Below, one piece after another: positions 3,031 to 45,397 of a stretch of DNA of 45,397 nt. The DNA comes from Candidatus Woesearchaeota archaeon (GTDB taxonomy: Archaea > Nanobdellota > Nanobdellia > Woesearchaeales > WJIZ01). The notes beneath the pieces were generated by a model. The model searched no databases. It was not told the origin of the DNA and was given only the letters and a program-made list of their open reading frames with translations. Location: contig JAAOYF010000014.1 of NCBI GenBank assembly GCA_018221205.1, positions 1 through 45,397 of the forward strand, written 5' to 3'. The stretch's first letter is position 1. Each line of letters opens with the position of its first letter. Position numbers and translations under genes: made by a program.

Positions 3031-3062
3031 GATGCAAAGGAGAAAAAGTCCTTTTATAATAT

Positions 3063-17534: not shown

Positions 17535-17606
17535 TAACCTGGTATTGCGCAGGATTGCTAATCCTGTTTCCTCACGGATATGTGGGTTCAAATCCCATCC
17601 TCGGCG
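17523..17606 (+). tRNA. tRNA-Ser (anticodon GCT), no encoded CCA
   Basis: Acceptor stem GCCGAGG/CCTCGGC, anticodon arm CAGGA-TTGCTAA-TCCTG, long variable arm TCC-TCAC-GGA, T arm GTGGG-TTCAAAT-CCCAT, discriminator G. Confidence 0.95.
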
Positions 17607-17607
17607 T

Positions 17608-17737
17608 AGCCTTGGGGAACTTTTAGTTCCCCTTTGTGCTCTTCTACGAGATACTGAGAAACTCAAAGAGTTTCTGGTATGCTCAGAAATCTTCGATTTC
17701 TGACATCTTTGAAAGACCTCAAGACCATCCTCGGCGT
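17608..17737 (+). mobile_element. Four-hairpin element, copy 2, flanked by a 13-bp duplication of the tRNA 3' end (putative non-autonomous element)
   Basis: CCATCCTCGGCGT at 17595-17607 and 17725-17737; hairpins at 17614-17632, 17657-17675, 17683-17703 and 17706-17716. Mobility is inferred. Confidence 0.6.
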
Positions 17738-17999: not shown

Positions 18000-18503
18000 T
18001 TGGATATTCGGGAGAGAACTGAAGTAATCAGCGAAATTTCTAGACTGTTAAGTGGGTTAAGGGAAGATGAAAGAAGGCAAATTCTCGTCAATATCGAGAG
18101 TCTGCAAGAAGATATTCCTATTTCCGCATTCAGATCCCCCATTTCTGGTTTGGAAGTTATTGTCAAGTTTCTCAAGGAAAACGCAAGAAGAACGACAAAA
18201 GAAATCGCAAAGATCCTCAACAGGAAACTCACAACTATCTATACAACCTACAGTGCGACAAAGATCAAACATCCCGAGCCCTTAGACCTCACAGGACGAG
18301 GAATTCTCATTCCCACACAAATTTTCCAAAATCGTCGTTATTCCATTCTTGAGTCGCTTGTTGCCTTCCTGAAGGAGAACAAGCGCTTCTCATTACACGA
18401 AATTGCCGCTCTCCTGAATAAGCAATACAACACCGTCAAGACAGTCTATCGGCGGTATATGATAAAGAGACGTGGTAGAGCTAAGAGTGAAAGAAAAAAA
18501 TAA
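18000..18503 (+). CDS. Tandem helix-turn-helix DNA-binding protein
   Basis: Two internal repeats: IPISAF..SGLEVIVKFLKEN..TKEIAKILNRKLTTIYTTY and IPTQIF..SILESLVAFLKEN..LHEIAALLNKQYNTVKTVY. Confidence 0.85.
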   Translation: MDIRERTEVISEISRLLSGLREDERRQILVNIESLQEDIPISAFRSPISGLEVIVKFLKENARRTTKEIAKILNRKLTTIYTTYSATKIKHPEPLDLTGRGILIPTQIFQNRRYSILESLVAFLKENKRFSLHEIAALLNKQYNTVKTVYRRYMIKRRGRAKSERKK

Positions 18504-21500
18504 GGTGATAGAGTCATTGAAAAGGGCTTTTGCTAATAAGAGCTCTGTCCTAGTTTTAGCTGTACTCTTAGCCACCATGCTCTTCGCTGCTTTGCTTTAT
18601 TTCAACCCGACCATAACAGGATTTGCAGTATTTGACCAGAATGAGATCTCAGAAAAAGTGGAGTGGAATCTGGACAAGACAACACAGAAGACTATCACGC
18701 TGAATGCGACAAAAGAACTGACAGCTATCTCCATATCCGGTGAATTGAACGGTTCTGCTAGGGTCTATCTCCTTTACAATGATGAGAGATATCTTATCTT
18801 CGACGGATCGAACGTTACGTCGCTAGTCTATCCACTGCAAGCGAACGTATCAAATGCATCCATAACAACCATCTTGAAATATCAATCAGGGACAGCATTC
18901 GACCCTGATGATGACGGCATCTCTCTGGATACAGAAGCGATCGACTTCACCGTAAATGAATCTAGGATAAACGAAACCTTAAACGCATCCAATCTCTGCA
19001 CAGTATGGGCAGCAGAACAATCTCTTTGCCATGGCTCATCTTCATGCTGTGATTTCCTCGATCTCAACCAAGATTCAGAGGACTGGGATGATGCATTCTA
19101 TCTCACCTCCAAACAGCCCTCTTACAGTGTTTCAGCCCAGATTTTCTATATAGACTACAGCCTTGATCCTAAAAATCCATATACAGATTTCTATTCAAGC
19201 AGCAAAGCCACCTTGCCTGCATTCTTCTACAAAACCCAAGGCACCTTCACAGCAGAGTGCACGGATACGTGCACATTGTCAGGAATCAAAGGATCCTCTT
19301 TCACCTTGCTTATTGAGATAGATGACGGTTCCATGACCATAGATGGACTGCAGTACTCACTTGATTCAGCAACAAATTCACCGCCTTCCTTCCAGGATCT
19401 CCCAAATCTTACCATAGAGAAGGACTCAACCTATATGTTGAATCTTTCTGACTATGTCTCTGATAGCGAGGGAGATATCTTGACCTATAAGGTGTTCCAG
19501 CTGGATAACATAAGCATAAACTTCTCAGGAAATCTCGCATACCTGACTCCAGATCCAGGCTATAGGGGGCAGGCTTCAACATTTATCATAGCAAATGACT
19601 CACAAGCGATCGGTATTTCCAACATCTTCACCATAATGGTGGAAGAGACTGAAGAGCCATTCAAACCCATAAAGCAAGTAGAGCTTGGAAAGCCTGTTAC
19701 GTGGAGAAAACGCCTCTCAGCAACCAAGAATCTTACCTTCAATCTCACACCGCATGCCTACAATATCTCAGTGAAGCAGATCATCACAGATATCTCTCTG
19801 AAAATTCCAGAAAGATTCATCGCCATAGCAGGAAAATCTCTGAAAAAGTACAATAACGACACCTTCATCAAAGTGAAGCAGAAGCTGCTCAAGGCCCAAC
19901 AGCAAGACATACAGCTGAACATTGAAAATACCACAGGAACAGTCGAGATTGAGTACATGACAGAAGGCCCTGAAGCATTTGAGTCTTCTCTCGACAACGG
20001 AAAACAAGTAATCATCAGTTCAGAGGTCCATTATGAGGATATAAAAGCATTCACCACCATAAGAGAAAGCTCTCTCAGCTCGATCAATCTCTTCCACGTC
20101 ATCAATGGTACCAAGCAAAAGATAGCGTTCAACGCATCCGATACTGATGGAGATTCATTATACGATTACATCGAGTGGACCATTCCCCATTTGAGCAACC
20201 AGACCTATGAGATCATATACATCTCAAAAGCAGAACACTTGGATACAAACAGGACATTCATTGCTGACATAACTGACAAAGTAGAAAGCAGGGATGGTGA
20301 TTGGATAGCTGTCCCAGATAGCAATTACGTAAGGATTACGTTCGAAAGAAAACTCTCAAAAGGCCGCGACATCACGATCTTCGCGAGATCGAATGATTCC
20401 GCAACTGTGGAAGTATTCCTCGAAAACTCCACAGACCAACTCGCTAATTTTGGCTCCATCAATATAGATCAGCGCTACCAGATATTCCTCAATAATCTCA
20501 CTCAAGAAGCAGATACATTCGATTTATTGGTAAGTGGAGGGACAGTTGAGTTTGATTATATCGTTGATCCAGCTGTCGGAGTGAATATAACTCAGCCTGA
20601 CGCAGCTGCTCCAGGAATGGACGTTGTCGTGCAATTCGTCGGAACAAGCTTTGATGCTACTGATACAGTGACCGTAAATACAACAGATATCATTGTTGGA
20701 CCAATAACAGTCACTGATCAAACTGGTGCTGTAGTCTCTTCAGGAGGCCGCGTCTTAACGACAGTCTTCTTTATCAGCGATGTAGCGACAGATCAAGATG
20801 TGCAGGTGAATATCACCGGTTCAACAATCCCGAATCCATTCAAGATTATAACACCAACAACTGGTTCAGGTAATTTCACCGGCGCTTCCGGAACAGTAAC
20901 AATTGGTGATGGCAATAACGGCACGCGGACACAAGGTGGAGCGATAATTCTTGACAGCCTCATTATACCATCGGGTGTGACAGTAATAGTTGATACCTCT
21001 GATCCCGATGCCACCGCAAGCAATGGAAATCAGGGATTCCTTCCTGCAGTGATATTAGTTGACGGCCCCGTAAACATCTCTGGAACGTTGAACATAAGCG
21101 GCCAAGATGGAGCAGTTGGTGCAAGTGCAGGAACCGGCGGAGCAGGCGGAGATGGAGGTCCAGGAGCAGGCGGAGGAGGTTCTGCTGGAGGAGACGGTAC
21201 AGCTGCCATAGGTGCTGGAGGAGATGGATTCTCAGGCGGCGGCGGCGGAGCGAGAGGCTCAGGCGGAGATGGCGGAGATGGCGGAGCAGGCACTGGCGGG
21301 CCAGGAGTGGCTGGCGGAGATGGCGGCGGCGGAGATGGCGGCTATCCAATGTTTGGTGATTCACCCTTGGGAGGCCAAGGTGGTGAGGATCCTGGAGGAA
21401 GTGCAGGAAGTACTGGAGCAGGCGGTTCAGGAGATCCTTTCGGTACCCAAGCTACAGCAAGTGCTGGAGTGAATACTGCTGGAGAAGGAGGTGCAAGCGG

Positions 21501-24500
21501 CGCTGGTGAGAGCGGCGGAGCTTCCGGCGGAGGCGGAGGCGGATTTGGAACAGCAGGTACAGATGGCCAACAGCAATCCGGCGGAGATTTAAACGAACAA
21601 GGCTATGGCGGTTTGGTAGCAGGAAATCAATTCTTAGTTCCACTCTCAGGAGGTTCGGGTGGATCAGGAGGTTCTCCAGATGACGGAGGCTCCGGAGATA
21701 GGATGGGGGGAGGAGGCGCAGGTGGAGGAGGAAGTGTCCTTATCTACTCACCAATTGAAATCAGAATAACCGGTTATATCTTATCAGAAGGTGGAGATGG
21801 TGGAAATGCTGGTCCCGGAGGAACTCAACGTGCCGGCGCAGGAGGAGGAGGTTCAGGCGGTGCAATAACACTTCAATCTCCAATAATCAACAATACGGGC
21901 CTTATCAATACCACAGGAGGAGGAGCAGGAACCTATGGAGGAACTGGCGCTGCAGGTGGAACAGGCGGCTTAGGAAGATTGAGGATTGATGGTGCTCGAG
22001 ACTCAACCTATTTTGGATCTGGATCAACTTATGGCAGCGGTTTCATAGGTCCTGCGTTAACTGAAATTGAAGTAGACCAAATCTCAGGAATTGCGGCTGC
22101 TTCTTCAACCGTTGATATCAGAATAATAAATTCACTTGGCACCGATTATTACAAGACAACAGCAGATAGTGATGGAGACTTTACTATCACTCCCGCATAT
22201 AGAAAGGGGTTGAACTATATCTCAGCCATGCAAAATACAAGCAGCGATACTTATTCAGTTATGGGATCTGCCTCAGTTGGAGTCTTTGATTACACACCAC
22301 CACCGAATATTACCGCCTTGGATTATCCACCAGATGTATCTTTTGTCAATGATGTTCCTCTCGACTATAACTTCACCGTTCATGATGATCAATTCATTGC
22401 AAACTGCAGCCTTTGGACAAATATGAGTGCTACCTGGACACTCAATACAACAATAGTACCAACAACAAATAATTCCCAGACATACAATATTACCCTAATT
22501 GTTCCAGATGGGAAGTTTAAATGGAATGTGCAGTGCTACGATAATGCATCCGGGTCCTCTTGGTTCAGCACAAATTACACCTTTACATTGGATTCAATCA
22601 AGCCAGAGGCGACAATCATATCAATTGATCCAAATCCAGCAAATCAGACATTGGACAATGTGACTGTTGAATGGGCTGCTTCCGATATCCATCTGCACAC
22701 CGCTTACGTAAATGTAACGTATCAAGATGGCTCCTTTATCAGCCAGTACACTGATAATTTCACCTTGACAACGATCAACCTCTCTGATGCAGGGAACTAT
22801 ACGATAACCTTATTTGCGAATGACTCAGCCGGTAACATCAATACGACATCAAGCATATTGACAGTAATTGACAGAATTCCGCCGAATATCACCCTGATCA
22901 ATCCAACGAATAGGACGTATGATATGGATGGCAACATCAATTTCACGTTTAATATAACAGATTTCTCATCTATCTTGAACTGCAGCCTCTTGTTCAGCGG
23001 AATCCCGATATCTTCTAATACAAGTGTCAATAAGAGCATTGCACAGAAATTTAGACAGACGAATATGGCTGATGGAGATTATATCTGGCATATCAGCTGC
23101 ACCGATGCTGAAACCAATCTCGGCCGCTCTTCAAACTGGACAGTGATTGTCGATAAAACCTTACCAACAGTCACGCTCAATTATCCCGAAAACAATAGGT
23201 ATTTCTCCCAATTAACGCTTCAGATGAACCACACGCCGGATGATCCCGGAGTGGCAGATCATCTAGAGGCATGTGAGCTTTGGACTAATTTTTCAAGCAG
23301 CTGGCAGCTCAATCAGACAGAATATTCTCCAAAATCAGACCAGAACAACGGATTTGACTTTGTCACGCTGTCTGAAAATGTCTACAGCTGGAATGTCGTC
23401 TGTAACGACACGGCGAAGAACATCGGCTGGGGCACAGCAAATTACACCTTTACTGTTGATATCACAAACCCAACTGTTGAATTTATCTGGCCTACCCCCA
23501 TAAACAACAGTAATCAGACCTCTTCAAGCCTGACCATAAATGTCAGCCACACCGAGATCCATCCCGAAATCCTGGTGCTTCTCATCAACTCTTCAAGAAA
23601 TGTCACCAAGCCTTACAGCGGATCATTCACCAATATGACCCTCACTGATCTTGACGATGGCATATACACAGTCAGGGTAGGCGTAAATGATTCTGCAAAG
23701 AATATCAATTATACAGAGATAAGACTTATACGTATCGATGCAACACCCCCACAGCTTTATCTGGAATCACCCCTTAATGATACCTGGAAGACGAGCACGA
23801 GTGTGGACTTCAATTACAACACATCGGATAATCTCATTGGTGTAGAGAACTGCACACTCTATATAGCCGGAACTCTGAATGACACCAGTTCATCGATAAC
23901 AGAAGGCATTTCCCAACAGCTCTCCGCAAATATAGGCAACAGCTTCAGTAATGAATGGTATGTCAGCTGTATTGACAGGCTTGGAAACACCAATGACTCA
24001 GAGACAAGGATAATCAAAGTGGATATTACGTTCCCCGGCATGGAGGATGAAGCCATTAACGGTACAGAGTTTGATGTCAATGACCATATCTGCCTCAACG
24101 TCACGGCTTCAGATACCTATTCAGGTGTTGCCCAGGTACTGGCAGAGATTGACTATCCTACATCCGGTTTGACTAATGTTTCCCTATCAAATTCAAGTAC
24201 CTGTAAAGGTGCAGGTGGAGCTGTCTGGGCAGCAGCATTGCAGCTCGTCGAGGACAAGAACTATAATTGGAGCAGGACCTTTGCTGTTGACATAGCAGGG
24301 AATGTGAATATCACCTATCCTCCAACAATCCTTAATTGGTCAGCAAATGCAACAATCTTCCTCAATACCACGATTCTGCAGCCAACGATTAATTTCGTAC
24401 TCAATGAATCATCAAATTCCATTAATGTCAGTTATTTGCAGCAATGTAACGTAAGTTGCCGTGATGATTCTAGCGCATCATGCGAAGGCATCTATCTCTT

Positions 24501-36500: not shown

Positions 36501-39500
36501 TGATTATACTGCACCATTCGCCTGCTCCTGGAACCTTGCAGCACTTCCAGACCACAACCAGTATGAATTATTGGTATATGGCAATGACAGCTTCGGCAAT
36601 ATCGGAGGAAATGACACTCACTATAACATCACTCTTGATAAGACCCCTGCAGCGATCACTCTTTTCAATCCAGACAACAATTCAGTTGATACAGATGGAT
36701 TCATTGCATTTAGCTACAACGTGACCGATAATCTCTCATCACCTTCATCTTGTACATTGGTCCTCAACTCAAAAGCAAATGAGACCAACTCCTCAGTCCT
36801 AGAATCACAGAACAACAGCTTCTCATTGGAATATATGGGAGAGCAGAAGTATAACTGGAGCATCAACTGTACAGACACCCTCGGAAATGTAGGGTCATCA
36901 GTAAATTATAATCTCACCGTGGATATCGATGATGACGCACCCAATATCACCCTGGTGGCACCAGAAAATGAGTCAACCTATACAAGCAAGGTCATCATCT
37001 TCCAGTATGATGTTGTGGATGCTCTATCAGGAATCGCCAATTGCAGCCTCTATTTCAACAATGAATTCAACCAGACGAACAGCTCGACAGTATCAGAAAG
37101 CGTGACCAATACCTTCACCATCACCAATGTCAACGACGGAAACTACTCCTGGTACGTGCAATGTGCTGATTCCAACTGGAAATATCATAGCGTAGGGACT
37201 TCAGATATCTTCAATTTCACCCTGGTCGTGACCACAAACATCAAAGTGAATGTCACCGCGAGCAGCGCGACCTATCAGCAGGGTGAGTTTGCAAACATCA
37301 CGACAAAGACAGTGGATAAGTTCAGTAATGCAATCAACACATCAGTCACTACCAGCTTCATAAATGCTTCTACGACCATACCTTGGTGGAATTCCAGCTT
37401 CTCCTATAGGCGTCAGATGAATATCACTAATCCGAGCACAGCTACTCTGTCTGCCAATTACACTGCCAACTATACCTTAGACACAACAGGATTCGTCTCA
37501 GCCGGTCTGATGCAGACCTCTGGCAAAGACTTGAGGATTGCGTGGTGGAATAACGAGACAAATAGCTGGACAGAGATGGACAGGCTCGTCACCAGCATGA
37601 ACACAGCCTCAACCACCGCCCTGTTCAAGATACGAAGAAATATCTCAGCCAGTTCTTCAGACCTCAGCTATTATCTCTATTACGGAAATAGTTCAGTGGC
37701 AGATGGGCCCACGGATAGGAAAAACATCTACTTCTACTTCGATGGCTTTGATACAGATACACTCAGCAATTATAATACTACAAGAGCATTCAGCTCCTCA
37801 TCAGAGGAATCAGATGATAATCTGACACATGATTCGCGCGGATGGATAAACTATTCTGGTTCAGCAAATTATGGTAAGTCGCTGAGAAAAGAGATTCCAA
37901 ATATCAAAGATGCGATTATAGAAATAGACCAATATGTCGACACCATGCTTGGAGCGCCCACAGCCTCAAGGCTCGAGGTAGCAGCGAAGATGAATGAAGA
38001 CAGCTATTATTACTTCTATGCCTCCACAAATCTCTTCAACAGCCAGCTCGGCAGGTATAATGACGGGTCAGAGACGTTCTCAACGACAAGGAATATCCAG
38101 TATACAGATGTCGACACCTGGTACAGGCTCAAGTTTGTCGTTTATGATAATGGCTCTAACGTCTATCTCAACTCTTATGTGGACGGATCGTTGATGATAG
38201 GCTATAATGATACTAATGTGCAGAAGCTCAACACTACCGGAGGCTTCGGTATAGGCAGCTATCAGCTAGACGGCAGATGGGACAATCTCACAGTGAGCAG
38301 GTACTTTGATACTCCGCCAACGTTCTCTACAAAAGGAGAGGAATACTTGGTCGCAACCCAAACAGAAGAGACTGGCCTGGACGGCATACTCACAATCTTG
38401 CAGGATACTATTACGTTCGAGACTGGCAGCCACACAGCAATTTCACTAGCTTCAAATCCAAACTATCTCAATGGTTTCAATTACACCACTATCACTATAG
38501 TGGCAGATACGGACTATCCGCAAGTGAGCCTTGTCTCTCCAGAGAATAATTCCTGGCTCAACAATCAGAACGTATCATTCGTCTATGTCCCAACCGATAA
38601 TACTCAGAAGTTTGCAAACTGCTCCTTGATCCTGAACAGTATCTACAATGAGACAAACTCTACACCACTGACCCATAATGCCCAGAATAATTTCACGTTG
38701 AATGACATGCCACAAGGCTATCACAACTGGAGCATAACGTGCTTTGATCTTGCGCAACAGCAGAATACCTCAGTCACGCAGTATTTCTACATCGATACTA
38801 CAGATCCTACGGTAACTCCCCAATATCCATCAGATGATTCTTATCTATCGCTAGTAGATATCAATTTCAATTTCACAGTGAGCGATAATCTTGATGCAGA
38901 GCTTCTGTGCAACCTGACATTAGACAGCAAGCAGAATAACTCTCAATATATCGTTGCCCAGAATGGATCGTATGCAAACTACACGATACATAACATCATC
39001 AATGGCAACCATACCTGGAGCGTGACTTGTTCCGATAACGCCACAAATGTACAGACAACCTCAACACTTTCTTTAGTTGTCGACACCATAGAGCCAGGCA
39101 TCACCTTGCAGGCTCCAGCACCAGCATTCGCGACCGGAGACGACTTCATCAGCTTCAACTGGACAGCAATCGATAATCTTGACACATCCTTGTTCTGTAA
39201 CCTCACTGTAGATGGCAAGGTGAATGCATCCACTGTTGTCTCTCCAAACGGCACCATGGTGAACCACACCACCCATAATCTAGGATTCGGCACCCATTAT
39301 TGGAATGTCACCTGCGAAGACACTTCCCTTAATACAAATACATCATTGACAAGAAACTTCACTATTTCAGGACAGCCGCCTTACTGGAGCAATAACCAGA
39401 ATTTCACTCCAGCTACTTATTCACCAACACAACAAAGCTCCTTTAACATCACCTGGCAGGATGACATCTCCATAAATTCAGCATGGTTCGAGAGCAATTA

Positions 39501-42500
39501 CTCAGGATCAAGGACTAATCTCAGCATGACTGATCTCGCTGCTGACAAATATAATTTCTCAGGCATATTGCCTGCAGGAACCCATTACTGGAGATCGCAC
39601 GCTAATGACTCTTCAGGATTATGGAATCAGACTAATGAATGGACCTTCACCATAGCAAAAGTGTCTACATCATGTTCATTGGATGTAAGCGCCTCTCCAG
39701 TAAGCTATAGCGTACAGACCCAGGCAAATTGTTCCTGTACAAATCTTGATCTCTCAGCGTCATTATTCAGGAATGGATCTGATGTCACATCGCAGAATGG
39801 CACTTTTACGACATTGGCAGCAGGAAATTGGTATTACACCTGTAACGTAACGTCCACCCAGAACTATACGACAGACTCAATCTCAAGATGGATAAATGTG
39901 ACACAGGCAGCAGGAACACTCAACCTCTTCATAAACAGCAGCACAGCAGACTATAGGTATAATGTAAGCTTCGACACCAATATCACCTGCCTACTAGCAA
40001 CACCTTCAACAGGAAACCTTACTATCTATGAAGACGGTGTCCAGATACAGTCAGCAATCGCCGACAGAGCAAACCTGACAAGGACATATACAGCACCAGC
40101 CCAGCACAACATTACTTGTATACTCGAGGATCATCTGAATTATACTGCGTCAGACTTCAGCTGGCTCAACGCCACAGACGAAGACAGCCTCTCCCTCTCC
40201 CAGAACTATCCACCACAGAACTACTACAATGACTCATCAGATCCTTATCAGATAACATTCGACTGTTCTGCCACCGATAACTATAATCTGCAGAATATCA
40301 CTCTTTATATGACGGGTCCATTGAATCAAAGCTTCGCTCCAAACCAATCTGCCTCCCTCACAGGCACATCCGATAGCGCAACATGGCCAGTGACATTAGG
40401 AAACGGCAATTATACGTGGAACTGCCTGGTCTATGATGAATATAATAATACATTATGGGGTGTGAACCGGACTGTTCTCATAAATTACACCATTGACATC
40501 AACATCTCCGATCTGGCAGGAAACAGGCTCGACTATACGCTCGAGAATCTTGGCCAGACAGACGGCCTTTACGATTTAAGGATAACATTCACATCAGAAG
40601 ATCCCGATGCAATGCTTATCAGAGGCTATAATGACACTGCAGAGGGTTACATACTCTTTGAATCTCCAACAAACGAGACATGGGGACAGGATAGTTATGC
40701 AATTTCAATAGAAGGAGCAGTCTTGAACAACTTGACCCTTACTTTAGTTGCGAATGGTTCCTATGTCTATAAGTGTGACAACTGGAATATGAGCAATCTG
40801 ACCTGTAAGGATGAGAATGTCTGGGACACGATTGCCCTGCCGACACTGAATCAAAAATATAACATAACCATAAATTCAACGGATCCAGGTTTCGTAGAGC
40901 TCAATATACCAGAATCTGATGTCTTAGATGACAGCATAGCAGGAGAATCTTCTCCATCAACAGAATGGGGAGGAGCATCAGTGACTGCTATCCAGAATTA
41001 CACAAATAACGCAGCCCATTCCATGTATAAATTCAATATCTCAAGTATACCCAGCGATGCAAATATCCAGAGCGCCACACTTTATCTTACCTGTAATCAG
41101 GAGAACCTCGAGTCAGGAGATAGCATCAGCTTCGGCGCCCATAGGGTCTATGGCAACTTCGGCTGGATTGAGGGAACAGGTTCTGGAATCGGTGGCGCAG
41201 CCTGCACAGGAGAAGAGTTCTGTTGGAACAATAAACCTACCCAAGGAACAGAATACAACGCAACAGCAGAAGATTCAGATACCTTCGGCAATGGATGCCC
41301 AGGAACACAAGTAGCATTGAACGTTTTCCATATGGTAAAGGCAGCCTACCTCAATAGCGAGGATAACATCTCAATCTATATCGTGCCGAACGGAACGACA
41401 GCTGGTACCGTAACAAATGATTGGATAAGGATCGCTTCTAAGGAAAACAACAATCCTGCAAGAAGACCAGTCCTTAATATTACTTATACGACTGTGCCTA
41501 AAGTCATCAATCTCACACCCAAAGCAGGAACGGTCTTCGATACGAATGTAGGAGTCAATATCTCAGCTAATGTGACAGACAACCCAGCTGCCGCGAACAT
41601 CTCATGGGTACTGGTCAACATCACCTTGCCAGATGCATCATTAGAGCAGATAAGGCTCAATAATACACAAGGAGATGACATCTACTATGGCAATTATTCG
41701 AACACTTCATTGATAGGGACCTATACAGTGAGATTCATAGCCAACAACACTGATGATGTAGAGAATGCGTCAGAGACAACATGGTTCTACATCCGGGATA
41801 GCATATCGCCGGTAGTGAGCCTCCAAAGCCCCATACCTAATTATTATAATGATACTAGCGATCCATCCGATGTCTTCTTTAACTGTTCGGTGACTGACAA
41901 TTATAACTTGCAGAATCTCACATTATACTTGACCGATTCATTGAATCAGAGCTTTGTTCCAAACAGCTCTGCCAGCATTAATGGCACATTTAATTATTCT
42001 ACCTGGACAGTCTCGCTAGGAAACGGAAACTACACCTGGAACTGCCTGGCATTTGACGAATTCAACAACACCGACTGGGGCATAAACCGGACAATATTGA
42101 TCAATTATTCTGACAAGCCGCCATACTGGAGCAATAATCAGAATTACACAGTAAGTACCTATTCCTCAACTGAAAGAAGCAGTTTCAATATCACCTGGGA
42201 AGATGACTATGGGGTAAGCTCAGTCTGGTTCGAATCCAACTACACAGGGACGGCAGAGAATTACAGTATGAATGCATTAGGCAGCAGCAAGTATAATTAT
42301 TCAGCAGTGTTCCCAGCCGGAACATTCTATTGGAGATCCTATGCAAATGACACATTGAATCAATGGAATCAGACAAGCCAATGGTTGTTTACAGTAGCGA
42401 GAGCTGCAAGCAGTGTAAATCTCTCACTCAATTACACAGATGCAGATATAACAATAGAAGCAGGCTCCACCATAAACATCTCAGCAGATCTTTTAATTCC

Positions 42501-45396
42501 AAGCTATGGCTGGATAGAGCTCTACCAGAATGCATCTCTCGTAAACTCAGGCTACAATTTCATCTCTAACTTGACCACGTTCAACTCCCCAGCCTACTAC
42601 AACTACACTGCAATCTATAACACAACAGAAAACTACTCAACAAGCCAAGAGACCCATCACTTAACAGTCCAGGACACCACAACTCCAACAATCTCAATCA
42701 TTGCTCCATTAGACGACGAATTACTAGGCTGGACAATCTTATTGAGAGCAAACGTAACCGATCTTAACCTCCATACTGTAAGATACCAAGTCCATAATGG
42801 CACAAGTAACGATAAGATAATAGATTCAGGAATCATGAACAACTTCCAAGGAGATTTATTCAACGGCACGTTATACACAAACGCAACCTGGCCTTATCCA
42901 ACTGCTTTCAGGAACTCAACTAATCTGACATTCATAATCTTCGCCAATGACACTTCTGGAAACTTAATTAACCTCTCAACCAATTTCACCTTGGATAACA
43001 CTCGCCCAAGCATACAATACCTCACTCCACCACCAGGAGGAATCTTCTACAACGCAGACTTCGATATGAACATCTTCCTAGCTAACACATTACTAAATTA
43101 TAGCTACGTCAACATCTCCCAAATATCAACCATCCAATTCAATGACACCAATTTATCAGTCTCAACCTTTACTTGGGCAGATCACGTCGATATTGACTCA
43201 TACAATGAAGGCAATTACACCGTAACCACTTTAGCAAGAGACTACGTCCAGAACAATCGCACTAGAGAGACCTGGTTCTACGTAGACAAGTCAGCTCCAA
43301 ATGCATCTAACTGGATTACTCCAACCTCAGCAAACAACACCTTCACCAACGTACAGATTCAATCCTTCAACTTCACCTGTTCAGATTCATTCCTCGATGA
43401 TGTCTGGCTAGACTTCGAAGGAACCCTAAACAGCACTCCATTCAACAACAATGACGCTTACTGGTGGACCTTCAATCTAGGAGAAGGAACATACGATTAT
43501 ACAGCATACTGCAACGACTCAGCAAGCAACATAAACCAGACTCAGGCATGGAGAATAAACATAGACTTGACCTCTCCAACCTGGTCAAACAATGACACAG
43601 ACCCACAATCTCCAGTAACTTATGCAAGTGGAGCCAGCTACCAATTCAACATCACCTGGAATGACAATTACGGAGTCAATTCCACAATATTCGAGCATAA
43701 TTTCACAGGAACTCTAACCAACTACTCAATCGCAGGCTCAAATGGTAACGAGTACTACTACGACTACTCTGACTTGGCAGCAGGTTACTACATCTGGAGA
43801 AGTTATGCTAATGACACCGCTGGAAACTACAACGTAACTGATCAATTCACCTACACTGTAACCAAAGCAGCATCTTTAGTAAACTTAACATTAAATGACA
43901 CTGATGATAATATAAGTGTAGAAGTAGGAACATTAGTCAACCTCTCAGGATATCTCATAACTCCAAGCTTCGGATCTATAGAATTATACTACAATGACAC
44001 CCTTATAAACTCTGGAAACAACTACATCAGCAACCTCACCCTATTCACAGCCAACGGAACATTCAACATAACTGTCTTGTATCCAGCAACAGAGAACTAC
44101 TCAACAACCTTAGAGACCCATTACATAGACGTCATAGACTCCACAGCACCAACTATCACCTTAAATGCACCCATAGACGGCTACAATACCACACAGACAG
44201 CAATAAACTTCTCCTGGATACCCTATGACAATTACGATACTTCATTATCCTGTAATGTAACCATAGACAGCGTAGTGCAAAGCTCAAATATCATCTCACC
44301 AAACGGATCAATACAGAACTCAACAGTAACCAGCCTCACAGAAGGCCTCCATTCCTGGAACGTAACTTGCTCAGACTACTCCCAGAACATCAATACTTCA
44401 GAAACACGTGTATTCAGGGTTGACACAATAGCCCCAACCTGGTCAAACAACGATACCGATCCACAATCACCAGTAGTATACAGCCAAGGAGCCAGTTACC
44501 AGTTCAACATCACCTGGCAGGATGCAGGAGTTGGCGTAGAGACAGTCTTATTCGAGCACAACTTCACCAGAACCTTCACCAACTACTCAATAAGCGGAAG
44601 CAACAGCAATGAATACTATTATGATTACTCCGACTTAGCTGCAGGCTACTACGTCTGGAGAAGTTACGCCAATGACACTTTAGGAAACGAGAATATCTCT
44701 GACCAGTTCACTTACACAGTAACAAGAGCGACAAGCGACATAAATCTCTCATTGAACTACACTGATGCAGACCTGACAATCGCAGCCTACTCAACAATCA
44801 ATATCTCAGGAGAATTATTGACCCCAAGCTTCGGCTACATCGAATTATGGCAGAATGATACCTTAATCAACTCCGGACCGAATTACATAAGCAACCTTTC
44901 AACATTCAATGAGATAGGTTATTTCAACATAACAGCCATCTATAACGCAACAGAGAACTACTCAACAAGCAGAGAGACCCATTTCCTCACAGTAACTGAT
45001 GCAACACCACCAAGGGTTGACTTAAACGCACCGATAGACGGCTACAACACCACTCAAACAGCAGTAAACTTCAGCTGGATACCATACGATAACTTCGACA
45101 CCAGTCTGCTCTGTAATCTCACGGTGGACGGAGTGTTCAACAAGACAGATATCATCTCTCCAAATGGATCAATCCAGAATTCAACAGTCTTAGGCTTCTA
45201 TGACGGCATCCATTCCTGGAACGTCACCTGTACTGATGATTACAACAATGTAAATACTTCACTAACAAGATCATTCAGGATCGACACCATAGCTCCAACC
45301 TGGTCAAATAATGATACAGACCCACAATCACCTGTAACATACGCACAAGGAGCCAACTATCAGTTCAACATAACTTGGCAGGATGCAGGAGTAGGC
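18487..45396 (+). CDS. Giant multidomain cell-surface glycoprotein/adhesin, at least 8,970 aa, 3' end outside the window
   Basis: Frame +1 from GTG 18487 (alternative GTG 18472): MKEKNKVIESLKRAFANKSSVLVLAVLLATMLFAALLYFNPTITGFAVF... Every segment I translated is open, up to ...QFNITWQDAGVG at the window end. The ORF track lists no terminated frame +1 ORF here, as expected for one unterminated frame. Confidence 0.93.
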   Translation, partial: MKEKNKVIESLKRAFANKSSVLVLAVLLATMLFAALLYFNPTITGFAVFDQNEISEKVEWNLDKTTQKTITLNATKELTAISISGELNGSARVYLLYNDERYLIFDGSNVTSLVYPLQANVSNASITTILKYQSGTAFDPDDDGISLDTEAIDFTVNESRINETLNASNLCTVWAAEQSLCHGSSSCCDFLDLNQDSEDWDDAFYLTSKQPSYSVSAQIFYIDYSLDPKNPYTDFYSSSKATLPAFFYKTQGTFTAECTDTCTLSGIKGSSFTLLIEIDDGSMTIDGLQYSLDSATNSPPSFQDLPNLTIEKDSTYMLNLSDYVSDSEGDILTYKVFQLDNISINFSGNLAYLTPDPGYRGQASTFIIANDSQAIGISNIFTIMVEETEEPFKPIKQVELGKPVTWRKRLSATKNLTFNLTPHAYNISVKQIITDISLKIPERFIAIAGKSLKKYNNDTFIKVKQKLLKAQQQDIQLNIENTTGTVEIEYMTEGPEAFESSLDNGKQVIISSEVHYEDIKAFTTIRESSLSSINLFHVINGTKQKIAFNASDTDGDSLYDYIEWTIPHLSNQTYEIIYISKAEHLDTNRTFIADITDKVESRDGDWIAVPDSNYVRITFERKLSKGRDITIFARSNDSATVEVFLENSTDQLANFGSINIDQRYQIFLNNLTQEADTFDLLVSGGTVEFDYIVDPAVGVNITQPDAAAPGMDVVVQFVGTSFDATDTVTVNTTDIIVGPITVTDQTGAVVSSGGRVLTTVFFISDVATDQDVQVNITGSTIPNPFKIITPTTGSGNFTGASGTVTIGDGNNGTRTQGGAIILDSLIIPSGVTVIVDTSDPDATASNGNQGFLPAVILVDGPVNISGTLNISGQDGAVGASAGTGGAGGDGGPGAGGGGSAGGDGTAAIGAGGDGFSGGGGGARGSGGDGGDGGAGTGGPGVAGGDGGGGDGGYPMFGDSPLGGQGGEDPGGSAGSTGAGGSGDPFGTQATASAGVNTAGEGGASGAGESGGASGGGGGGFGTAGTDGQQQSGGDLNEQGYGGLVAGNQFLVPLSGGSGGSGGSPDDGGSGDRMGGGGAGGGGSVLIYSPIEIRITGYILSEGGDGGNAGPGGTQRAGAGGGGSGGAITLQSPIINNTGLINTTGGGAGTYGGTGAAGGTGGLGRLRIDGARDSTYFGSGSTYGSGFIGPALTEIEVDQISGIAAASSTVDIRIINSLGTDYYKTTADSDGDFTITPAYRKGLNYISAMQNTSSDTYSVMGSASVGVFDYTPPPNITALDYPPDVSFVNDVPLDYNFTVHDDQFIANCSLWTNMSATWTLNTTIVPTTNNSQTYNITLIVPDGKFKWNVQCYDNASGSSWFSTNYTFTLDSIKPEATIISIDPNPANQTLDNVTVEWAASDIHLHTAYVNVTYQDGSFISQYTDNFTLTTINLSDAGNYTITLFANDSAGNINTTSSILTVIDRIPPNITLINPTNRTYDMDGNINFTFNITDFSSILNCSLLFSGIPISSNTSVNKSIAQKFRQTNMADGDYIWHISCTDAETNLGRSSNWTVIVDKTLPTVTLNYPENNRYFSQLTLQMNHTPDDPGVADHLEACELWTNFSSSWQLNQTEYSPKSDQNNGFDFVTLSENVYSWNVVCNDTAKNIGWGTANYTFTVDITNPTVEFIWPTPINNSNQTSSSLTINVSHTEIHPEILVLLINSSRNVTKPYSGSFTNMTLTDLDDGIYTVRVGVNDSAKNINYTEIRLIRIDATPPQLYLESPLNDTWKTSTSVDFNYNTSDNLIGVENCTLYIAGTLNDTSSSITEGISQQLSANIGNSFSNEWYVSCIDRLGNTNDSETRIIKVDITFPGMEDEAINGTEFDVNDHICLNVTASDTYSGVAQVLAEIDYPTSGLTNVSLSNSSTCKGAGGAVWAAALQLVEDKNYNWSRTFAVDIAGNVNITYPPTILNWSANATIFLNTTILQPTINFVLNESSNSINVSYLQQCNVSCRDDSSASCEGIYLFTDYFEGSWNTITTTTQTFISSLDNYSCGTLAAEESCQQTFNVTIGRESGGSTYRMRCRTSSTNAPSDYSVEFNLTVNDYPVAKMLYPTNNEWLHGIEIINVSTSTDDREITQYIFEVDNNTDFDSPTLLCDTLNTGAQGTASTGNLTGTYGQSGGNYTNTTQNDTSYWFVGNSGSFSINAYAVATYNLSKTGVAEEDLTALSFSMVYCHSGSDYPGVECAGTAATGSVDGTQQVEAFNYSNSQWTDIGDLRTDDAGNEIYDEFSVPGNLSDFINDTSDEIRIRYEMDYINAFAEDRSFLVIDHAILDISYDLGLDSCSFDTTNQTQCDEESQTCYLRLNVTDSDGLRNSTYITISIDNIGPTTTLLRPINFTNITASTYLMNVSVQDVGSGADTITYLYRENNTASWNSLCTRSTTPYNCTWDLSSLEEGRNYQLRAYANDSESNLGGNDTAMNITLDRLGPIITLNAPGNNTWNLDDIIFNYTVNDIHSDIASCSLLINSITNQTNTTITEGADLKFTINGIADGYYTWRVLCKDMLDNVNNSEIRILKVDNSGPTSTVINPPDFTNISGSYTVNATVTDAGSGVNTTLFYYRQNLSASWMLICSDETSPYECNWDTSSLPEAVSYEVRAYANDSLGYIGDNDTNTNISVDRTSPVINLLAPGNNSQDVDGIVDFNFSVTDALLGVPNCSLIINGSVNRTAFGIQESSAENITLDNLVNGFYHWNVSCSDDAGNTNTSDTRAVTIAPDADPPNVSLNSPTNSSTISNQDVALTYTVTDALSEISNCSLFFLETFNQTNSTAVTEGASNVFNVYNLDNGNYSWRVECTDTAVSPNTGASGTYNFTVNNLPSMRINLTADQLQYEVGERASLNTSTSDEFGNPINTTVTTDIILGNTSTPWWNTSWKRRKPVFINDTTGSYRADVLVNVNVSGLGGYITDCTNEIRVVGNNSLSFSDVPVNIVGGDNSTYCDITFRGNVSASAVDENTYFVYYNNSGAADPGHGLMNITENVTFDTFEADFGNWTDQGGTCLYVRNQDVTPSATTGFGNTGGQGFDHTLGTSSGWYIYVEASGNVCQGGDTEADVVSNSFTAGSASTTLSFWFQMHGNAVGTLHVDVNDGGWNNDLWTQVNQNQSSPLDPWAFAQVDLSAYSGQLQVRFRYDGVTGWQADQLLDDINITVGNRISNGLASYTGETEEFIQENTSVTGDDGYWIWSWNTFGQSFGNYSAVSLSTSQDYDDGSDYTLFEIIPDTSNPRISLNYPYNNSWNNTNSLTFHYTPTDNAHHFANCSLYFNSILNKTNTTSISDAQQNSFSLSGIVVGKHNWSISCFDISGNQNSSETRFFFIDQTPPSINLDWPIDGYNTTTSMLDLNFTAFDNMDTGLTCNITLDNVMLSSIGAANGTLSGANAEDLTNSLHRWNVTCQDNATNVNTSLTRTFIVDSIAPTIELNKPSNDSWDNSGLIEFNFTATDTYLHRCELWGNFSASWLKNRTVYGPPSGSETNFSKVTIPDGIYYWGVNCSDYAGNLNWSNANFTIKIDTTIPQIGFASNNPINNSNQSSTSVFINATHTEVNSHTIIFYWNGSQNETRAYSSLYTNITLPNIVDGPYTYYVWVNDSATNENQTETRTITIDTIAPDLSLVSPQNNSWINNASNPALFIYTADDDLLIVENCSLYVDSIWNQTNATISEGINQNFTLQLYSANYTWNVQCYDTVGNLNTSETRKAKVDLSFPTIANTNTNNTNTTVSDYICINATIADTFSQVLQAYAHIVDPDSVTQTVYLVDNSTTTCDGSNGDGIYSATYQLTKAGTYNWTRMYAKDFAGNLNLTFVGIEMNSTSFISMNSTLYYPTGTFEINESTGSFAMNCSATCDPTSETCTNVRLRASYNESGSSYITTLTTDLTNDINGYVCGDLSPGATCSNVFTIDASDTSGQENWRVWCTGNSDNAGSIDSEDEVNLTINDRPYAMWDYPIDLEWLSGTENLTALSSYDNDGSLGLYTFELDNNTAFSTPTTICDSTDGNCTFDTTSQSQCTQHTFDCYLKLTVTDDNYATNSTILNIGIDNIGPTTTILRPLNGTNISTSVYEMNASIVDTGSGVNTTIFEQRPDILSGWQVACTDTDGTSPFNCSWNLASLDDGKSYQVRMRANDSEGNYGSYITVYNITVDRYGPAIDLNSPANNTWSLNDIIFRYTPDDAFSYITSCSLYLNAQQNKSNSSITDGLSQNVSVWDMADGDYNWSIQCTDSLGNQNSSLTRKIKIDNTGPTASLDQPQNFTNISGAYTVNATVMDAGIGINATSFYYRQNFSASWSLLCSDTTAPYGCNWNTLGSPERNSYEVRAFANDSLGNRGANYTSYNITIDNTPPSLALILPDNNSQDIDGAVNFTFTVSDALIGISQCILIINSSTNATYNSPAEDATLGFYVTTLRNNSHQWSVNCTDTAGNTQASDFRNITIGPDNDAPLITLLTPANESTYTSSDIAFNYVVNDLLSGIANCSLYFDSQFNQTNSSAITEDETNTFSINNVPNGNYSWQVECTDTAAPPNSALSVIHNFTLVETQALHVNVSLDQTVYEQGEIAIINSSATDIFGNPIEANVTTDIILGKTEVGWWNSSWLLRRRFNLTTPDESNRTAEIVKVNISGLGGSIESCSNELRIIRGTVVKTEISFTSEAGDDSTYCYVRFITNITYGTPEIYYAYYNNSNAPAPGYSTVATQYVANGNMNGASDWTYTETEASDVGEYSTAQSNSPSRSYHIYNDGTSGTIGLYGEIYQDIELPCVGCNLTISAYNRLESAGSTVAAFVAHIIIDTFYLSSIDFPGSAGSPIDWTIRSNTSYRPQSSTERLYLRMTTNMDFAGWGQRDSYWDDVNITINKPIDTSMVMSAEENWISTNSNETGDGGYWIWYWSTYTQEVSNYSAVSYVTNPNYNPGSNSSFFEILPDTSNPAVSLISPLNLSWNKTGNVTFKYIPTDNAHRFANCSLILNDAFNKTNSSAITEAVQNSLSLNNMAEGAYNWSITCFDLEDNQNTSVTQFFYVDKTKPAISLEYPIDSFNTSLTTINFNFTVTDYFYPDNMNCELYYDSKINNSASLLVPNGSYSNYTVNNMVGGSHTWRVTCQDNATNLNTSLTRSFIIDFIAPSTTLNAPENNSWDADGSVQMQYTPVDTYLKSCDLWGNFSGSWAFNQTDSNPSSGSQNSFNAIALTDGYYIWAVNCTDHSLNYNWSKNNFSINIDTTAPTIDFAGGTASDDSYYNRDYIYVNVTASDSNEANITFRLYNTTSIVNITTLPAGYRDINFTGLNTNEQYTYNVTILDKARNNASTSTRTLTLDSINPIVSLDAPADSHLTNSTIITFNYTSFNTNADSCTIYHNASGWAANDTQSVTSGVQKSVSKTFFDGDFIWNVFCNDSAGNAAWNATNFTFIIDTTAPSIDFAGNNPVNNSNQSSSQVFINTTHTEVHPDTIRLYWNGVQNQTKTYAATYTNFTLIPIADGSYTYYVWINDTAWNKNQTETRKITVDTTPPTLSLNAPENDTWSNELRTLFNFTTNDALIGVQACSLVIDSKLNQTNSSISEGVSQYFNHVLGSSYGYNWSVNCTDTLGNENISETRIIKIDKSLPTITGENINETSLEVNFQICLNVSVTDTYSDLASVIATVEFPSGEQNVSLSNTTGCGNVGGSIWTDELSLPEQGDYNWTRTYATDNAGNTQLNYLSVQRNWSTFANNFLNSTITRPIANFELNESTVAAVSYYNQSCEASCEVSSTLDCENVYIFADYYDGSWTKITTATTKFYADVDNGSCGTVTKGDTCSQQFNVSVGTNAGGTIYPIRCRAASTNSATSYSTETLEVNATINDFPVARFSHPTNSTWHYGVEILNASTSTDDQGISLYSFELDNNQAFSSPTLLCSTADANCTFNTSAQTECTEEVMGCYLRLNVTDSDGLKNWTIITFGIDNTGPTAVLDRPRNFTNTSSNAYTVNASLSDAGNGSISAAIFQYRENFQETWTTACIDYTAPFACSWNLAALPDHNQYELLVYGNDSFGNIGGNDTHYNITLDKTPAAITLFNPDNNSVDTDGFIAFSYNVTDNLSSPSSCTLVLNSKANETNSSVLESQNNSFSLEYMGEQKYNWSINCTDTLGNVGSSVNYNLTVDIDDDAPNITLVAPENESTYTSKVIIFQYDVVDALSGIANCSLYFNNEFNQTNSSTVSESVTNTFTITNVNDGNYSWYVQCADSNWKYHSVGTSDIFNFTLVVTTNIKVNVTASSATYQQGEFANITTKTVDKFSNAINTSVTTSFINASTTIPWWNSSFSYRRQMNITNPSTATLSANYTANYTLDTTGFVSAGLMQTSGKDLRIAWWNNETNSWTEMDRLVTSMNTASTTALFKIRRNISASSSDLSYYLYYGNSSVADGPTDRKNIYFYFDGFDTDTLSNYNTTRAFSSSSEESDDNLTHDSRGWINYSGSANYGKSLRKEIPNIKDAIIEIDQYVDTMLGAPTASRLEVAAKMNEDSYYYFYASTNLFNSQLGRYNDGSETFSTTRNIQYTDVDTWYRLKFVVYDNGSNVYLNSYVDGSLMIGYNDTNVQKLNTTGGFGIGSYQLDGRWDNLTVSRYFDTPPTFSTKGEEYLVATQTEETGLDGILTILQDTITFETGSHTAISLASNPNYLNGFNYTTITIVADTDYPQVSLVSPENNSWLNNQNVSFVYVPTDNTQKFANCSLILNSIYNETNSTPLTHNAQNNFTLNDMPQGYHNWSITCFDLAQQQNTSVTQYFYIDTTDPTVTPQYPSDDSYLSLVDINFNFTVSDNLDAELLCNLTLDSKQNNSQYIVAQNGSYANYTIHNIINGNHTWSVTCSDNATNVQTTSTLSLVVDTIEPGITLQAPAPAFATGDDFISFNWTAIDNLDTSLFCNLTVDGKVNASTVVSPNGTMVNHTTHNLGFGTHYWNVTCEDTSLNTNTSLTRNFTISGQPPYWSNNQNFTPATYSPTQQSSFNITWQDDISINSAWFESNYSGSRTNLSMTDLAADKYNFSGILPAGTHYWRSHANDSSGLWNQTNEWTFTIAKVSTSCSLDVSASPVSYSVQTQANCSCTNLDLSASLFRNGSDVTSQNGTFTTLAAGNWYYTCNVTSTQNYTTDSISRWINVTQAAGTLNLFINSSTADYRYNVSFDTNITCLLATPSTGNLTIYEDGVQIQSAIADRANLTRTYTAPAQHNITCILEDHLNYTASDFSWLNATDEDSLSLSQNYPPQNYYNDSSDPYQITFDCSATDNYNLQNITLYMTGPLNQSFAPNQSASLTGTSDSATWPVTLGNGNYTWNCLVYDEYNNTLWGVNRTVLINYTIDINISDLAGNRLDYTLENLGQTDGLYDLRITFTSEDPDAMLIRGYNDTAEGYILFESPTNETWGQDSYAISIEGAVLNNLTLTLVANGSYVYKCDNWNMSNLTCKDENVWDTIALPTLNQKYNITINSTDPGFVELNIPESDVLDDSIAGESSPSTEWGGASVTAIQNYTNNAAHSMYKFNISSIPSDANIQSATLYLTCNQENLESGDSISFGAHRVYGNFGWIEGTGSGIGGAACTGEEFCWNNKPTQGTEYNATAEDSDTFGNGCPGTQVALNVFHMVKAAYLNSEDNISIYIVPNGTTAGTVTNDWIRIASKENNNPARRPVLNITYTTVPKVINLTPKAGTVFDTNVGVNISANVTDNPAAANISWVLVNITLPDASLEQIRLNNTQGDDIYYGNYSNTSLIGTYTVRFIANNTDDVENASETTWFYIRDSISPVVSLQSPIPNYYNDTSDPSDVFFNCSVTDNYNLQNLTLYLTDSLNQSFVPNSSASINGTFNYSTWTVSLGNGNYTWNCLAFDEFNNTDWGINRTILINYSDKPPYWSNNQNYTVSTYSSTERSSFNITWEDDYGVSSVWFESNYTGTAENYSMNALGSSKYNYSAVFPAGTFYWRSYANDTLNQWNQTSQWLFTVARAASSVNLSLNYTDADITIEAGSTINISADLLIPSYGWIELYQNASLVNSGYNFISNLTTFNSPAYYNYTAIYNTTENYSTSQETHHLTVQDTTTPTISIIAPLDDELLGWTILLRANVTDLNLHTVRYQVHNGTSNDKIIDSGIMNNFQGDLFNGTLYTNATWPYPTAFRNSTNLTFIIFANDTSGNLINLSTNFTLDNTRPSIQYLTPPPGGIFYNADFDMNIFLANTLLNYSYVNISQISTIQFNDTNLSVSTFTWADHVDIDSYNEGNYTVTTLARDYVQNNRTRETWFYVDKSAPNASNWITPTSANNTFTNVQIQSFNFTCSDSFLDDVWLDFEGTLNSTPFNNNDAYWWTFNLGEGTYDYTAYCNDSASNINQTQAWRINIDLTSPTWSNNDTDPQSPVTYASGASYQFNITWNDNYGVNSTIFEHNFTGTLTNYSIAGSNGNEYYYDYSDLAAGYYIWRSYANDTAGNYNVTDQFTYTVTKAASLVNLTLNDTDDNISVEVGTLVNLSGYLITPSFGSIELYYNDTLINSGNNYISNLTLFTANGTFNITVLYPATENYSTTLETHYIDVIDSTAPTITLNAPIDGYNTTQTAINFSWIPYDNYDTSLSCNVTIDSVVQSSNIISPNGSIQNSTVTSLTEGLHSWNVTCSDYSQNINTSETRVFRVDTIAPTWSNNDTDPQSPVVYSQGASYQFNITWQDAGVGVETVLFEHNFTRTFTNYSISGSNSNEYYYDYSDLAAGYYVWRSYANDTLGNENISDQFTYTVTRATSDINLSLNYTDADLTIAAYSTINISGELLTPSFGYIELWQNDTLINSGPNYISNLSTFNEIGYFNITAIYNATENYSTSRETHFLTVTDATPPRVDLNAPIDGYNTTQTAVNFSWIPYDNFDTSLLCNLTVDGVFNKTDIISPNGSIQNSTVLGFYDGIHSWNVTCTDDYNNVNTSLTRSFRIDTIAPTWSNNDTDPQSPVTYAQGANYQFNITWQDAGVG
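21100..21990 (+). other. Glycine-rich domain of the giant protein
   Basis: GTGGAGGDGGPGAGGGG, GGSGGSGG, GGGGSGGAITL and GGLGRLRIDG repeats; high GC. Confidence 0.85.
23160..39090 (+). repeat. Three degenerate super-repeats within the giant gene (approx. 23160-28830, 28830-33900, 33900-39090)
   Basis: Ordered recurring landmarks: C(E/D)LW(T/G)NFS; NNSNQ..HTE; DNN.(D/A)F..PT..C (24853, 30505, 36154); WWN.S (27199, 32317, 37384); PTDN...FANCSL. Confidence 0.85.
27535..28035 (+). other. MAM-like domain within the giant protein
   Basis: TFEADFGNW...DHTLGTSSGWYIYVEAS...LSFWFQMHGNAVGTLHV...W..AQVDL...LLDDINIT matches the MAM signature. Confidence 0.8.
40910..41490 (+). other. DNRLRE/CBM96-like domain within the giant protein
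   Basis: DDS..ESSPSTEWGG...MYKFNISSIPSDANIQSATLYL...WNNKP...ASKENNNPARRPVLNITY. Confidence 0.7.
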
Positions 45397-45397
45397 G
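43576..45397 (+). repeat. ~860-bp tandem repeats (about 286 aa) in the giant gene, continuing off the window
   Basis: CCAACCTGGTCAAA (PTWSNNDTDPQSPV) at 43576, 44434 and 45295; periods 858 and 861 bp. Confidence 0.9.

Follow-up and report, generated by a model that had tools for sequence, protein, structure and literature searches.

Giant surface proteins of 5,998 to 9,409 aa have been described in nanohaloarchaea, among them SVXNc_0300 (9,409 aa), with ~75 domains in a tandem Ig-like stalk (PMC6642349, PMC10266531), and halomucin is of similar length (~9,000 aa; PMC6642349). Surveys have found few huge proteins in archaea, mostly rich in laminin-G or Ig-like domains and of unknown function (PMC11573180, 10.1101/2023.11.21.568195). 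Some Woesearchaeota have been proposed to be predators of bacteria, and the hosts and attachment mechanisms of this group are largely inferred from genomes (PMC9723730).

The giant protein described here resembles these nanohaloarchaeal giants, the SPEAREs, in its DPANN host, its size, its tandem Ig-like stalk and a proposed role in host attachment (PMC6642349, PMC10266531). The share of the genome given to such genes is also alike, at ~4 to 5% (4% published versus 4.95% of the assembly here, for three head-bearing genes). What defines a SPEARE is a membrane helix late in the protein, followed by a cytoplasmic VirB4/HerA-like ATPase, whereas the giant lacks a sequenced C-terminus. The presence of one or more laminin-G domains is a further SPEARE characteristic, and the sequenced part of this incomplete protein contains no LamG match. 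The available portions of the SPEARE reports mention neither a head of the present type nor Cys-pair units, MAM domains or DUF2341 cassettes (PMC6642349, PMC10266531).

The bacterial RTX fibrillar adhesin AhLap has an Ig-like extender stalk and ligand-binding domains that bud from interrupted domains (PMC12077191), and split domains are considered for the giant because of this precedent. A comparable feature is a PKD-like unit, which carries a 180-aa insert in one copy of a triplicated block (copy A) and none in copies B and C. Unlike AhLap, the giant has no RTX match in its sequenced part (the C-terminus is missing), and likely Sec export, N-glycans and disulfides take the place of type I secretion and stiffening by Ca2+. 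In addition, its inserts are spread along the stalk, three of them raised on a DUF2341 domain.

Microbial GAIN-like autoproteolytic (MAIN) domains, with Bacillus subtilis YfkN as the prototype, cleave at H-x|S/T, and the fragments stay associated; the giant shares with them an H-hydrophobic-S motif at a turn that precedes the final strand of a β-sandwich within a large surface protein (10.64898/2026.05.12.724683). The main text of that preprint does not mention DPANN or Woesearchaeota, although its supplementary tables of 15,000 proteins may include DPANN (10.64898/2026.05.12.724683). The domain of the giant differs in being smaller, in its best fold matches (the C-terminal domains of glycosidases), in having His in only 73% of copies and in its N-terminal position, which reverses the layout; cleavage is putative.

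Halomucin of Haloquadratum walsbyi is like the giant in size. It is acidic and likely glycosylated, as is the giant. It belongs to another lineage, and the giant, compared with it by description, differs in that folded repeats follow one another along it and its inserts can be exchanged. The giant would work like a fibrillar adhesin, and we do not file it as a SPEARE (its end is missing), as a MAIN protein (two features differ) or as a halomucin (compared by description). A literature search largely confined to papers outside subscription found no description of the head, the ITG motif or the DUF2341 cassette.

Reading frame, assembly and upstream genes

The window, i.e., the whole stretch of 45,397 nt that was analyzed, is an entire contig (C52) of a short-read MAG of 1.28 Mb (94.8% complete, 74 contigs). 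Frame +1 contains no stop from 18487 to 45396, and the other five frames contain 426 to 621; from base composition, the chance of such a run is ~10^-216. The initial annotation had reported a giant ORF of at least 8,970 codons from 18487, unended, covering about 59% of the window and absent from the ORF track. All of this holds: translation of frame +1 revealed no in-frame stop, the span is 59%, and the ORF, listed as 3' open, was skipped by the track because the contig stops inside it. The proposed extension into a following window fell away, as the window is the whole contig. Start codon candidates are GTG at 18472 (the pick of the ORF tool), 18487 and 18505 and TTG at 18517, which has GGTGAT, presumably a Shine-Dalgarno-type site, 7 nt upstream; the choice among the four is uncertain.

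An assembly artefact, either a chimera or a repeat expansion, is extremely unlikely to have produced this frame. The MAG consists of short-read contigs, none of the contigs of run X1 bridges the whole gene or extends past its end (the longest piece among those shown is 1,712 nt), and the read check covered 25500-45397 of a gene that begins near 18487. Nevertheless, X1 contigs fill all 30 bins of the region covered with no joint, no indel and one substitution (X1 is possibly the source sample of the MAG and hence not independent), whereas contigs of run X2 contain next to nothing of the window. No exact 25-mer is repeated inside the ORF, its internal DNA repeats being 65 to 84% identical, and GC3 along the gene (0.41 to 0.54) is like that of four housekeeping genes (0.44 to 0.50). 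Closed relatives are equally long or longer, and the neighboring genes are archaeal housekeeping genes (those for Orc1/Cdc6, RtcB, SerRS and the phosphopantoate route). The giant is a real gene, cut by the contig end.

X1 depth is 12.2 in the last bin and 0.7 to 7.7 in the others. Three loose X1 ends resemble diverged copies of distal repeat units, and the two of these that were tested are missing from the assembly, which points to further repeat copies beyond the break or to a close relative in the sample. A blastn search with the last 3 kb matched C52 alone, and tblastn with the giant protein against its own assembly gave matches limited to C52, C28 and C1. The exact protein, looked up under two starts, is absent from the protein collection. 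Among 24 5'-open frames of at least 150 aa, the sole surface-type candidate for the C-terminus is a 1,741-aa end (G000:C14, 1-5223; L056) comprising CARDB, a poly-Gly linker, a membrane helix and a short basic tail, with no ATPase match. It has no linking overlap with the giant and 2.2 sequons per 100 aa, versus 7.5 at the break.

A tandem helix-turn-helix (HTH) gene overlaps the first codons of the giant. Of 19 frames that bear the head and are preceded by 250 nt or more of sequence, 11 have a homologue of it directly 5' (the giant and its paralogue counted), and it is likely the regulator of the giant. A sigma-70 promoter scan, a method unsuited to archaea, gave matches at chance level. A tRNA-Ser(GCT) gene (17522-17607, + strand), followed by a terminator-like hairpin (17614-17632), lies ~370 nt before the HTH gene and is a possible integration site. 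In divergent orientation, 770 nt from the HTH-giant unit, a gene at 15188-17230 (− strand) encodes an exported transglutaminase-like protein of 680 aa with a C-terminal helix (PF01841, E 6e-27), which could act on surface proteins.

Head, stalk and inserted domains

The hydrophobic helix and ITGFAV (aa 43 to 48) reported initially are both present at the N-terminus. Among 34 homologues, 22 have a TG motif no further than aa 140, and in 20 of these it is downstream of the helix. A hydrophobic helix followed by (I/L/F/T)TGxxV/I opens seven frames of the same genome under a strict pattern, mostly of small proteins, and is a candidate lineage-specific export or anchoring signal. The match to a signal peptidase in the genome was below the cut-off, PF00717 being uninformative for this enzyme, so the helix may be either a cleaved signal or a retained anchor. 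The missing C-terminus could also hold an anchor, and a cytoplasmic or enzymatic part there could alter the reading of the protein as an adhesin.

The next ~700 aa form a head composed of H1, a cadherin-like unit, two small β-sandwiches and H3 (Table 1). The cadherin-like unit, first placed at 19375-19645, stands with near-identical limits and clear homologues, but its Pfam match is subthreshold. The second sandwich carries a D-x-D/N-x-x-G loop and a W-x-V/I-P-H-L-S turn (H568-L569-S570, 20188-20196), and its best fold matches are the C-terminal domains of GH29, GH66 and GH106 enzymes (Z 8.1 to 8.9, rmsd 2.0 to 2.2). No internal duplication between the two sandwiches was detected (probability 0.35). 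By sequence, the head has no match in the PDB (best E ~1) or NCBIfam, and its Pfam matches are at chance level apart from a weak EF-hand on an acidic loop. Atlas searches with the head returned unnamed clusters with low recognition; those with the following Gly-rich domain gave weak look-alikes, also in unnamed clusters, the top one mostly from phages. The unit between H3 and the Gly-rich domain, which has no profile match, is presumably IPT-like.

Table 1. Positions of the giant gene, its domains and the overlapping upstream gene in the 45,397-nt window
Feature	Position	Strand	Evidence or remark
Tandem HTH gene, 167 aa	18000-18503	+	Pfam HTH_23 E 9e-7, Sigma70_r4_2; end overlaps first codons of giant
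Giant ORF	18487-45396	+	At least 8,970 codons, at least 0.98 MDa, pI 4.07; 3' truncated by contig end
Hydrophobic helix and ITGFAV (18613-18630)	18529-18630	+	Hydropathy; export signal or type II membrane anchor
H1 (aa 50-297), Cys containing	18634-19377	+	No Pfam or NCBIfam match; homologues to E 1e-34
Cadherin-like/Big_9 unit	19378-19650	+	Pfam Big_9 E 0.0018 (below cut-off); homologues E 1e-22
Two small β-sandwiches (aa 393-494, 495-580)	19663-20226	+	AF2 models, pLDDT 89
H3, CBM32/galactose-binding-like jelly roll	20221-20577	+	Fold match Z 10.6-11.0, rmsd 2.5-3.0, 110-116 aligned (VIA)
IPT-like unit and Gly-rich domain	20578-22056	+	43% Gly over aa 880-1170; common to P0026
Super-repeat A (~1,880 aa)	23158-28809	+	Internal comparison and map
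Insert (~180 aa) between two Cys of PKD-like unit, copy A	24901-25440	+	GH114_assoc E 2.5e-4 (below cut-off)
Cassette 1, MAM insert 27640-28035	27052-28254	+	Pfam MAM E 1.1e-14 (above cut-off)
Super-repeat B (~1,790 aa)	28825-34164	+	Internal comparison and map
Cassette 2, different insert 32617-33129	32170-33312	+	Insert without profile match
Super-repeat C (~1,630 aa)	34474-39357	+	Internal comparison and map
Cassette 3, DUF2341 and third insert 37711-38322	37237-38511	+	Pfam DUF2341 E 1.5e-4 (just below cut-off); insert without profile match
"DPGF" domain	40492-40911	+	Replaces P-x-L-S domain at its usual place in 6 of 64 H3 copies
DNRLRE/CBM96 carbohydrate-binding module (aa 7476-7667)	40912-41487	+	NF033679 E 3e-14, PF24517 E 2e-8 (both above cut-off)
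Distal stalk, younger repeats	39373-45396	+	71.5% DNA identity over 972 nt; contig break inside repeat unit

The domain-wise HMM search that had been proposed found Big_13, Big_7 or Big_3_3 in 19 of 30 protein pieces. Internal profiles mapped 72 segments over aa 1190 to 8970, reduced to 68 domains by merging interrupted ones: three DUF2341-like domains and ~65 stalk units, mostly Ig-like. The dozens of Ig-like units with a Cys pair announced by the initial annotation come to about two dozen (a strict pattern finds 25, and W-x-[VILA]-x-C-x-D finds 29); they make up ~40% of stalk units, and the literal C-S-L occurs 14 times. The features most informative on function escaped that reading, namely the conservation of the head, the triplication of the super-module and the interchangeable inserted domains.

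A block of 1,600 to 1,900 aa is present three times, with copies 41 to 45% identical when internal repeats were compared as 200-aa chunks. Each copy holds a cassette composed of a half-domain, a DUF2341-like domain, an insert and a second half-domain. The cassette is present in 20 of 151 genomes of the order, where its flanks are conserved and its inserts differ. A distance of 277 to 510 aa separates its halves in 17 of 19 copies (locus ends cut the remaining two), and no uninterrupted form was found among the 19, a set biased by having been fetched with the cassette. The two halves are putatively a split Ig domain. The 180-aa insert domain of the PKD-like unit recurs within a DUF2341 cassette of L066, again as the insert, so that one insert type occupies two scaffolds. 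The inserts of cassettes 2 and 3 may be lectins, judging from their sequence pattern. The "DPGF" domain beside the CBM96 module gave no match to the profile of HFS-type domains.

Asn, Thr and Ser together account for 33% of the protein. N-glycosylation sequons number 543, versus 210 expected (2.6-fold enriched), and reach 7.5 per 100 aa. The genome contains genes for STT3/AglB and VKOR, both over the cut-off, the latter at 63467-63808 of C28.

Distribution and variation of the family

The head was found in 51 of 61 relatives. Its aa 393 to 700 part occurs at 125 places, which are spread over 79 of the 151 genomes that represent the order. In a set of 151 genomes from the phylum, a profile of aa 393 to 582 finds matches in 53. 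Distal stalk units are present in 87 of the 201 genomes tallied, among which is one unpublished genome that no claim depends on. Named head homologues belong to Woesearchaeota, Pacearchaeota or Nanoarchaeota; the sole exception, labeled "Phycisphaerae", is a partial protein from a contig of 3.8 kb. The assignment of a giant, exported Ig-repeat protein to a small, DPANN-type genome is supported. No whole-length orthologue was found among 34 homologues and four fetched giants; in a chunk-by-chunk comparison, which covered P0001 to P0012 and the fetched frames, what matched was the head, along with individual stalk units.

Two further head-bearing genes of the same genome, of 9,180 and 3,006 codons, lie on C28, and both are closed. 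The C28 cluster (L001 to L004) comprises ORFs at 8181-35720 (9,180 codons), 38602-44859 (2,086 codons, no sequons) and 50286-59303 (3,006 codons, head bearing), and three tandem HTH genes lie inside it. The 9,180-codon paralogue has SLS in place of HLS, one internal HFS-type domain and no late membrane helix, and its body differs from that of the giant, with laminin-G-like and propeller-like repeats recognized by eye.

Each of four fetched relatives has a closed frame, and these are 8,155, 9,660, 10,022 and 15,809 codons long. Those of 9,660 and 10,022 codons (L047 and L052, on G004:C24 and G124:C2) lack a late helix and contain two and four internal F-N/S-V-T/S-H-F-T domains, respectively, beside the N-terminal P-H-L-S domain. 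The 8,155- and 15,809-codon frames end in a helix and a tail of ~390 aa; the longer (G046:C41; L049 to L051) has a QLS variant of the head, and the next gene (705 codons) closes with a near-copy of this tail. A further frame, on G046:C93, has 11,928 codons. A HerA-type domain (PF01935) combined with a late membrane helix was found in 4 of 12 giant relatives with the head (P0007, P0008, P0010 and P0011). The family thus has a constant head, a mosaic body and a variable end.

Placement of the giant in the size class of the largest archaeal proteins agrees with the published lengths. Size alone is neither new nor a record, as nanohaloarchaeal giants of 8,553 to 9,409 aa are published. It is remarkable for a reduced DPANN genome only in part: the genome is small and of DPANN type, but similar-sized DPANN giants are already known, the same genome holds a second giant, and 13 of the 125 head matches (the two of this genome counted) lie in frames of at least 5,000 codons. 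The frames of 9,660, 10,022 and 15,809 codons, from ordinary MAGs, exceed the 9,409 aa given as the published record for cultivated archaea. The head provides an unannotated marker by which giants of this kind can be located in roughly half of the order's genomes.

Probable adhesin function and alternatives

The giant is probably an exported, N-glycosylated and disulfide-braced long fibrillar adhesin with predicted sugar-binding domains on an Ig-like stalk. Features expected of a fibrillar adhesin are present, namely an N-terminal hydrophobic helix, a tandem Ig-like stalk and domains of ligand-binding type (MAM, CBM96/DNRLRE and the CBM32-like fold). The helix and ITGFAV would route the protein through Sec, the helix probably staying as an anchor, and AglB may glycosylate many of the sequons. 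Oxidation linked to VKOR would close the Cys pairs and yield a stiffer fiber. An Ig-like unit measures ~4 nm. The ~65 in-line units, if extended, could reach ~0.25 to 0.3 µm, near the diameter of a DPANN cell (ARM-1 cells are 0.3 to 0.5 µm across; PMC11329633). The MAM domain, CBM96, the CBM32-like H3 and the unnamed inserts would project to the side of the stalk, and their ligands would be glycans or proteins carried by a host, a prey cell or a particle. Reach and specificity may be set by duplicating the super-module and exchanging inserts, and the overlapping HTH gene may control this costly gene. MAM domains are known mainly as mediators of contacts between proteins, so the ligands of the giant need not be sugars.

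A fiber of the same length could instead protect or space the cell as a halomucin-like glycocalyx, through hydration, steric shielding or as a virus decoy, and not act as a specific adhesin. The acidic pI, the abundance of Asn, Thr and Ser, the local sequon density and a size like that of halomucin (PMC6642349) are in keeping with such a function. It is quite unlikely, however, as the units are folded and Cys paired, not low-complexity mucin sequence, and dedicated, exchangeable inserts of binding type are present. A distinctly improbable alternative is a SPEARE-like protein, whose missing end would be a membrane helix with a HerA/VirB4-type ATPase and whose N-terminal helix would be a cleaved signal. 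The PF01935 relatives and the two frames that finish in a helix and ~390-aa tail argue for this ending, whereas the C28 paralogue and the 9,660- and 10,022-codon relatives lack a late membrane helix, and the C14 frame, the sole surface-type candidate noted above, ends in a short tail with no ATPase match.

The third alternative is an addition to the fibrillar adhesin and not a replacement: the same fiber would cleave itself at H568-L569|S570 by an N-O acyl shift, leaving more than 8,400 residues held on the anchored head by one β-strand and shed under force. Across 64 distinct copies of the P-x-L-S turn, Ser is conserved in 63 and Leu and Pro in 62 each, a count that is partly circular, since the profile was seeded with rows picked by the motif. 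In both AF2 models, the His closes a strand, and the turn that leads into the last strand of the sandwich contains Leu-Ser, a predicted geometry like that described for MAIN domains (10.64898/2026.05.12.724683). The slot before H3 (n = 64) is filled by the P-x-L-S domain in 52 cases by pattern, with two variants, by DPGF in six, by HFS/GFS-type domains in two and by others in two; the HFS/GFS cases favor cleavage, as does the alignment of one ZU5 tandem structure (4d8o, 1148-1272; Z 5.4, rmsd 2.8, 78 residues). That structure ranked 29, tied with many unrelated sandwiches, and glycosidase C-terminal domains fit better; GAIN, Nup98 and SEA were absent among the best 50 matches listed per fold search and among the Foldseek matches listed. 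Moreover, the His is conserved in 47 copies (73%) and replaced in 17 (by Ser in 12, Gln in 3 and Tyr in 2), including that of the 9,180-codon paralogue, and hhalign detected no profile homology to 20 DPANN HFS-type copies (probability 0.14 to 0.16). The domain is just ~86 aa long, and its site is close to the N-terminus, in contrast to MAIN domains, nearly all of which adjoin a C-terminal anchor. We consider self-cleavage rather unlikely.

A wider version, which we regard as unlikely, makes the head the standard launch module of Woesearchaeota and Pacearchaeota giants of up to 15,809 codons. The near-invariant P-H-L|S turn would be a self-cleaving breakaway joint within a small sandwich, itself at most distant kin of GAIN/ZU5. 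Placed beside an N-terminal anchor, the reverse of the MAIN layout, the joint would let the cell drop its megadalton, multi-specific adhesin and so detach from its host. If the turn does cleave, force-release joints would extend to a new fold and layout. For the fibrillar adhesin itself, the MAM domain, CBM96, H3 and the three unnamed inserts are small, expressible domains whose ligands would indicate what the cell grips.

Other genes of the window were recorded in passing. A Cys-rich protein of 363 aa (13467-14558, + strand) without a Pfam or NCBIfam match has an N-terminus that we take to be pilin-like, of class III type. A gene at 5966-7872 (+ strand) adjoining that for RtcB is presumably archease-like, with NF001617 just below the cut-off. 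The lineage is usually short of cofactor pathways. The region 348-3812 (− strand) encodes the four-gene archaeal route to CoA, with panB, coaBC, pantoate kinase and phosphopantothenate synthetase.
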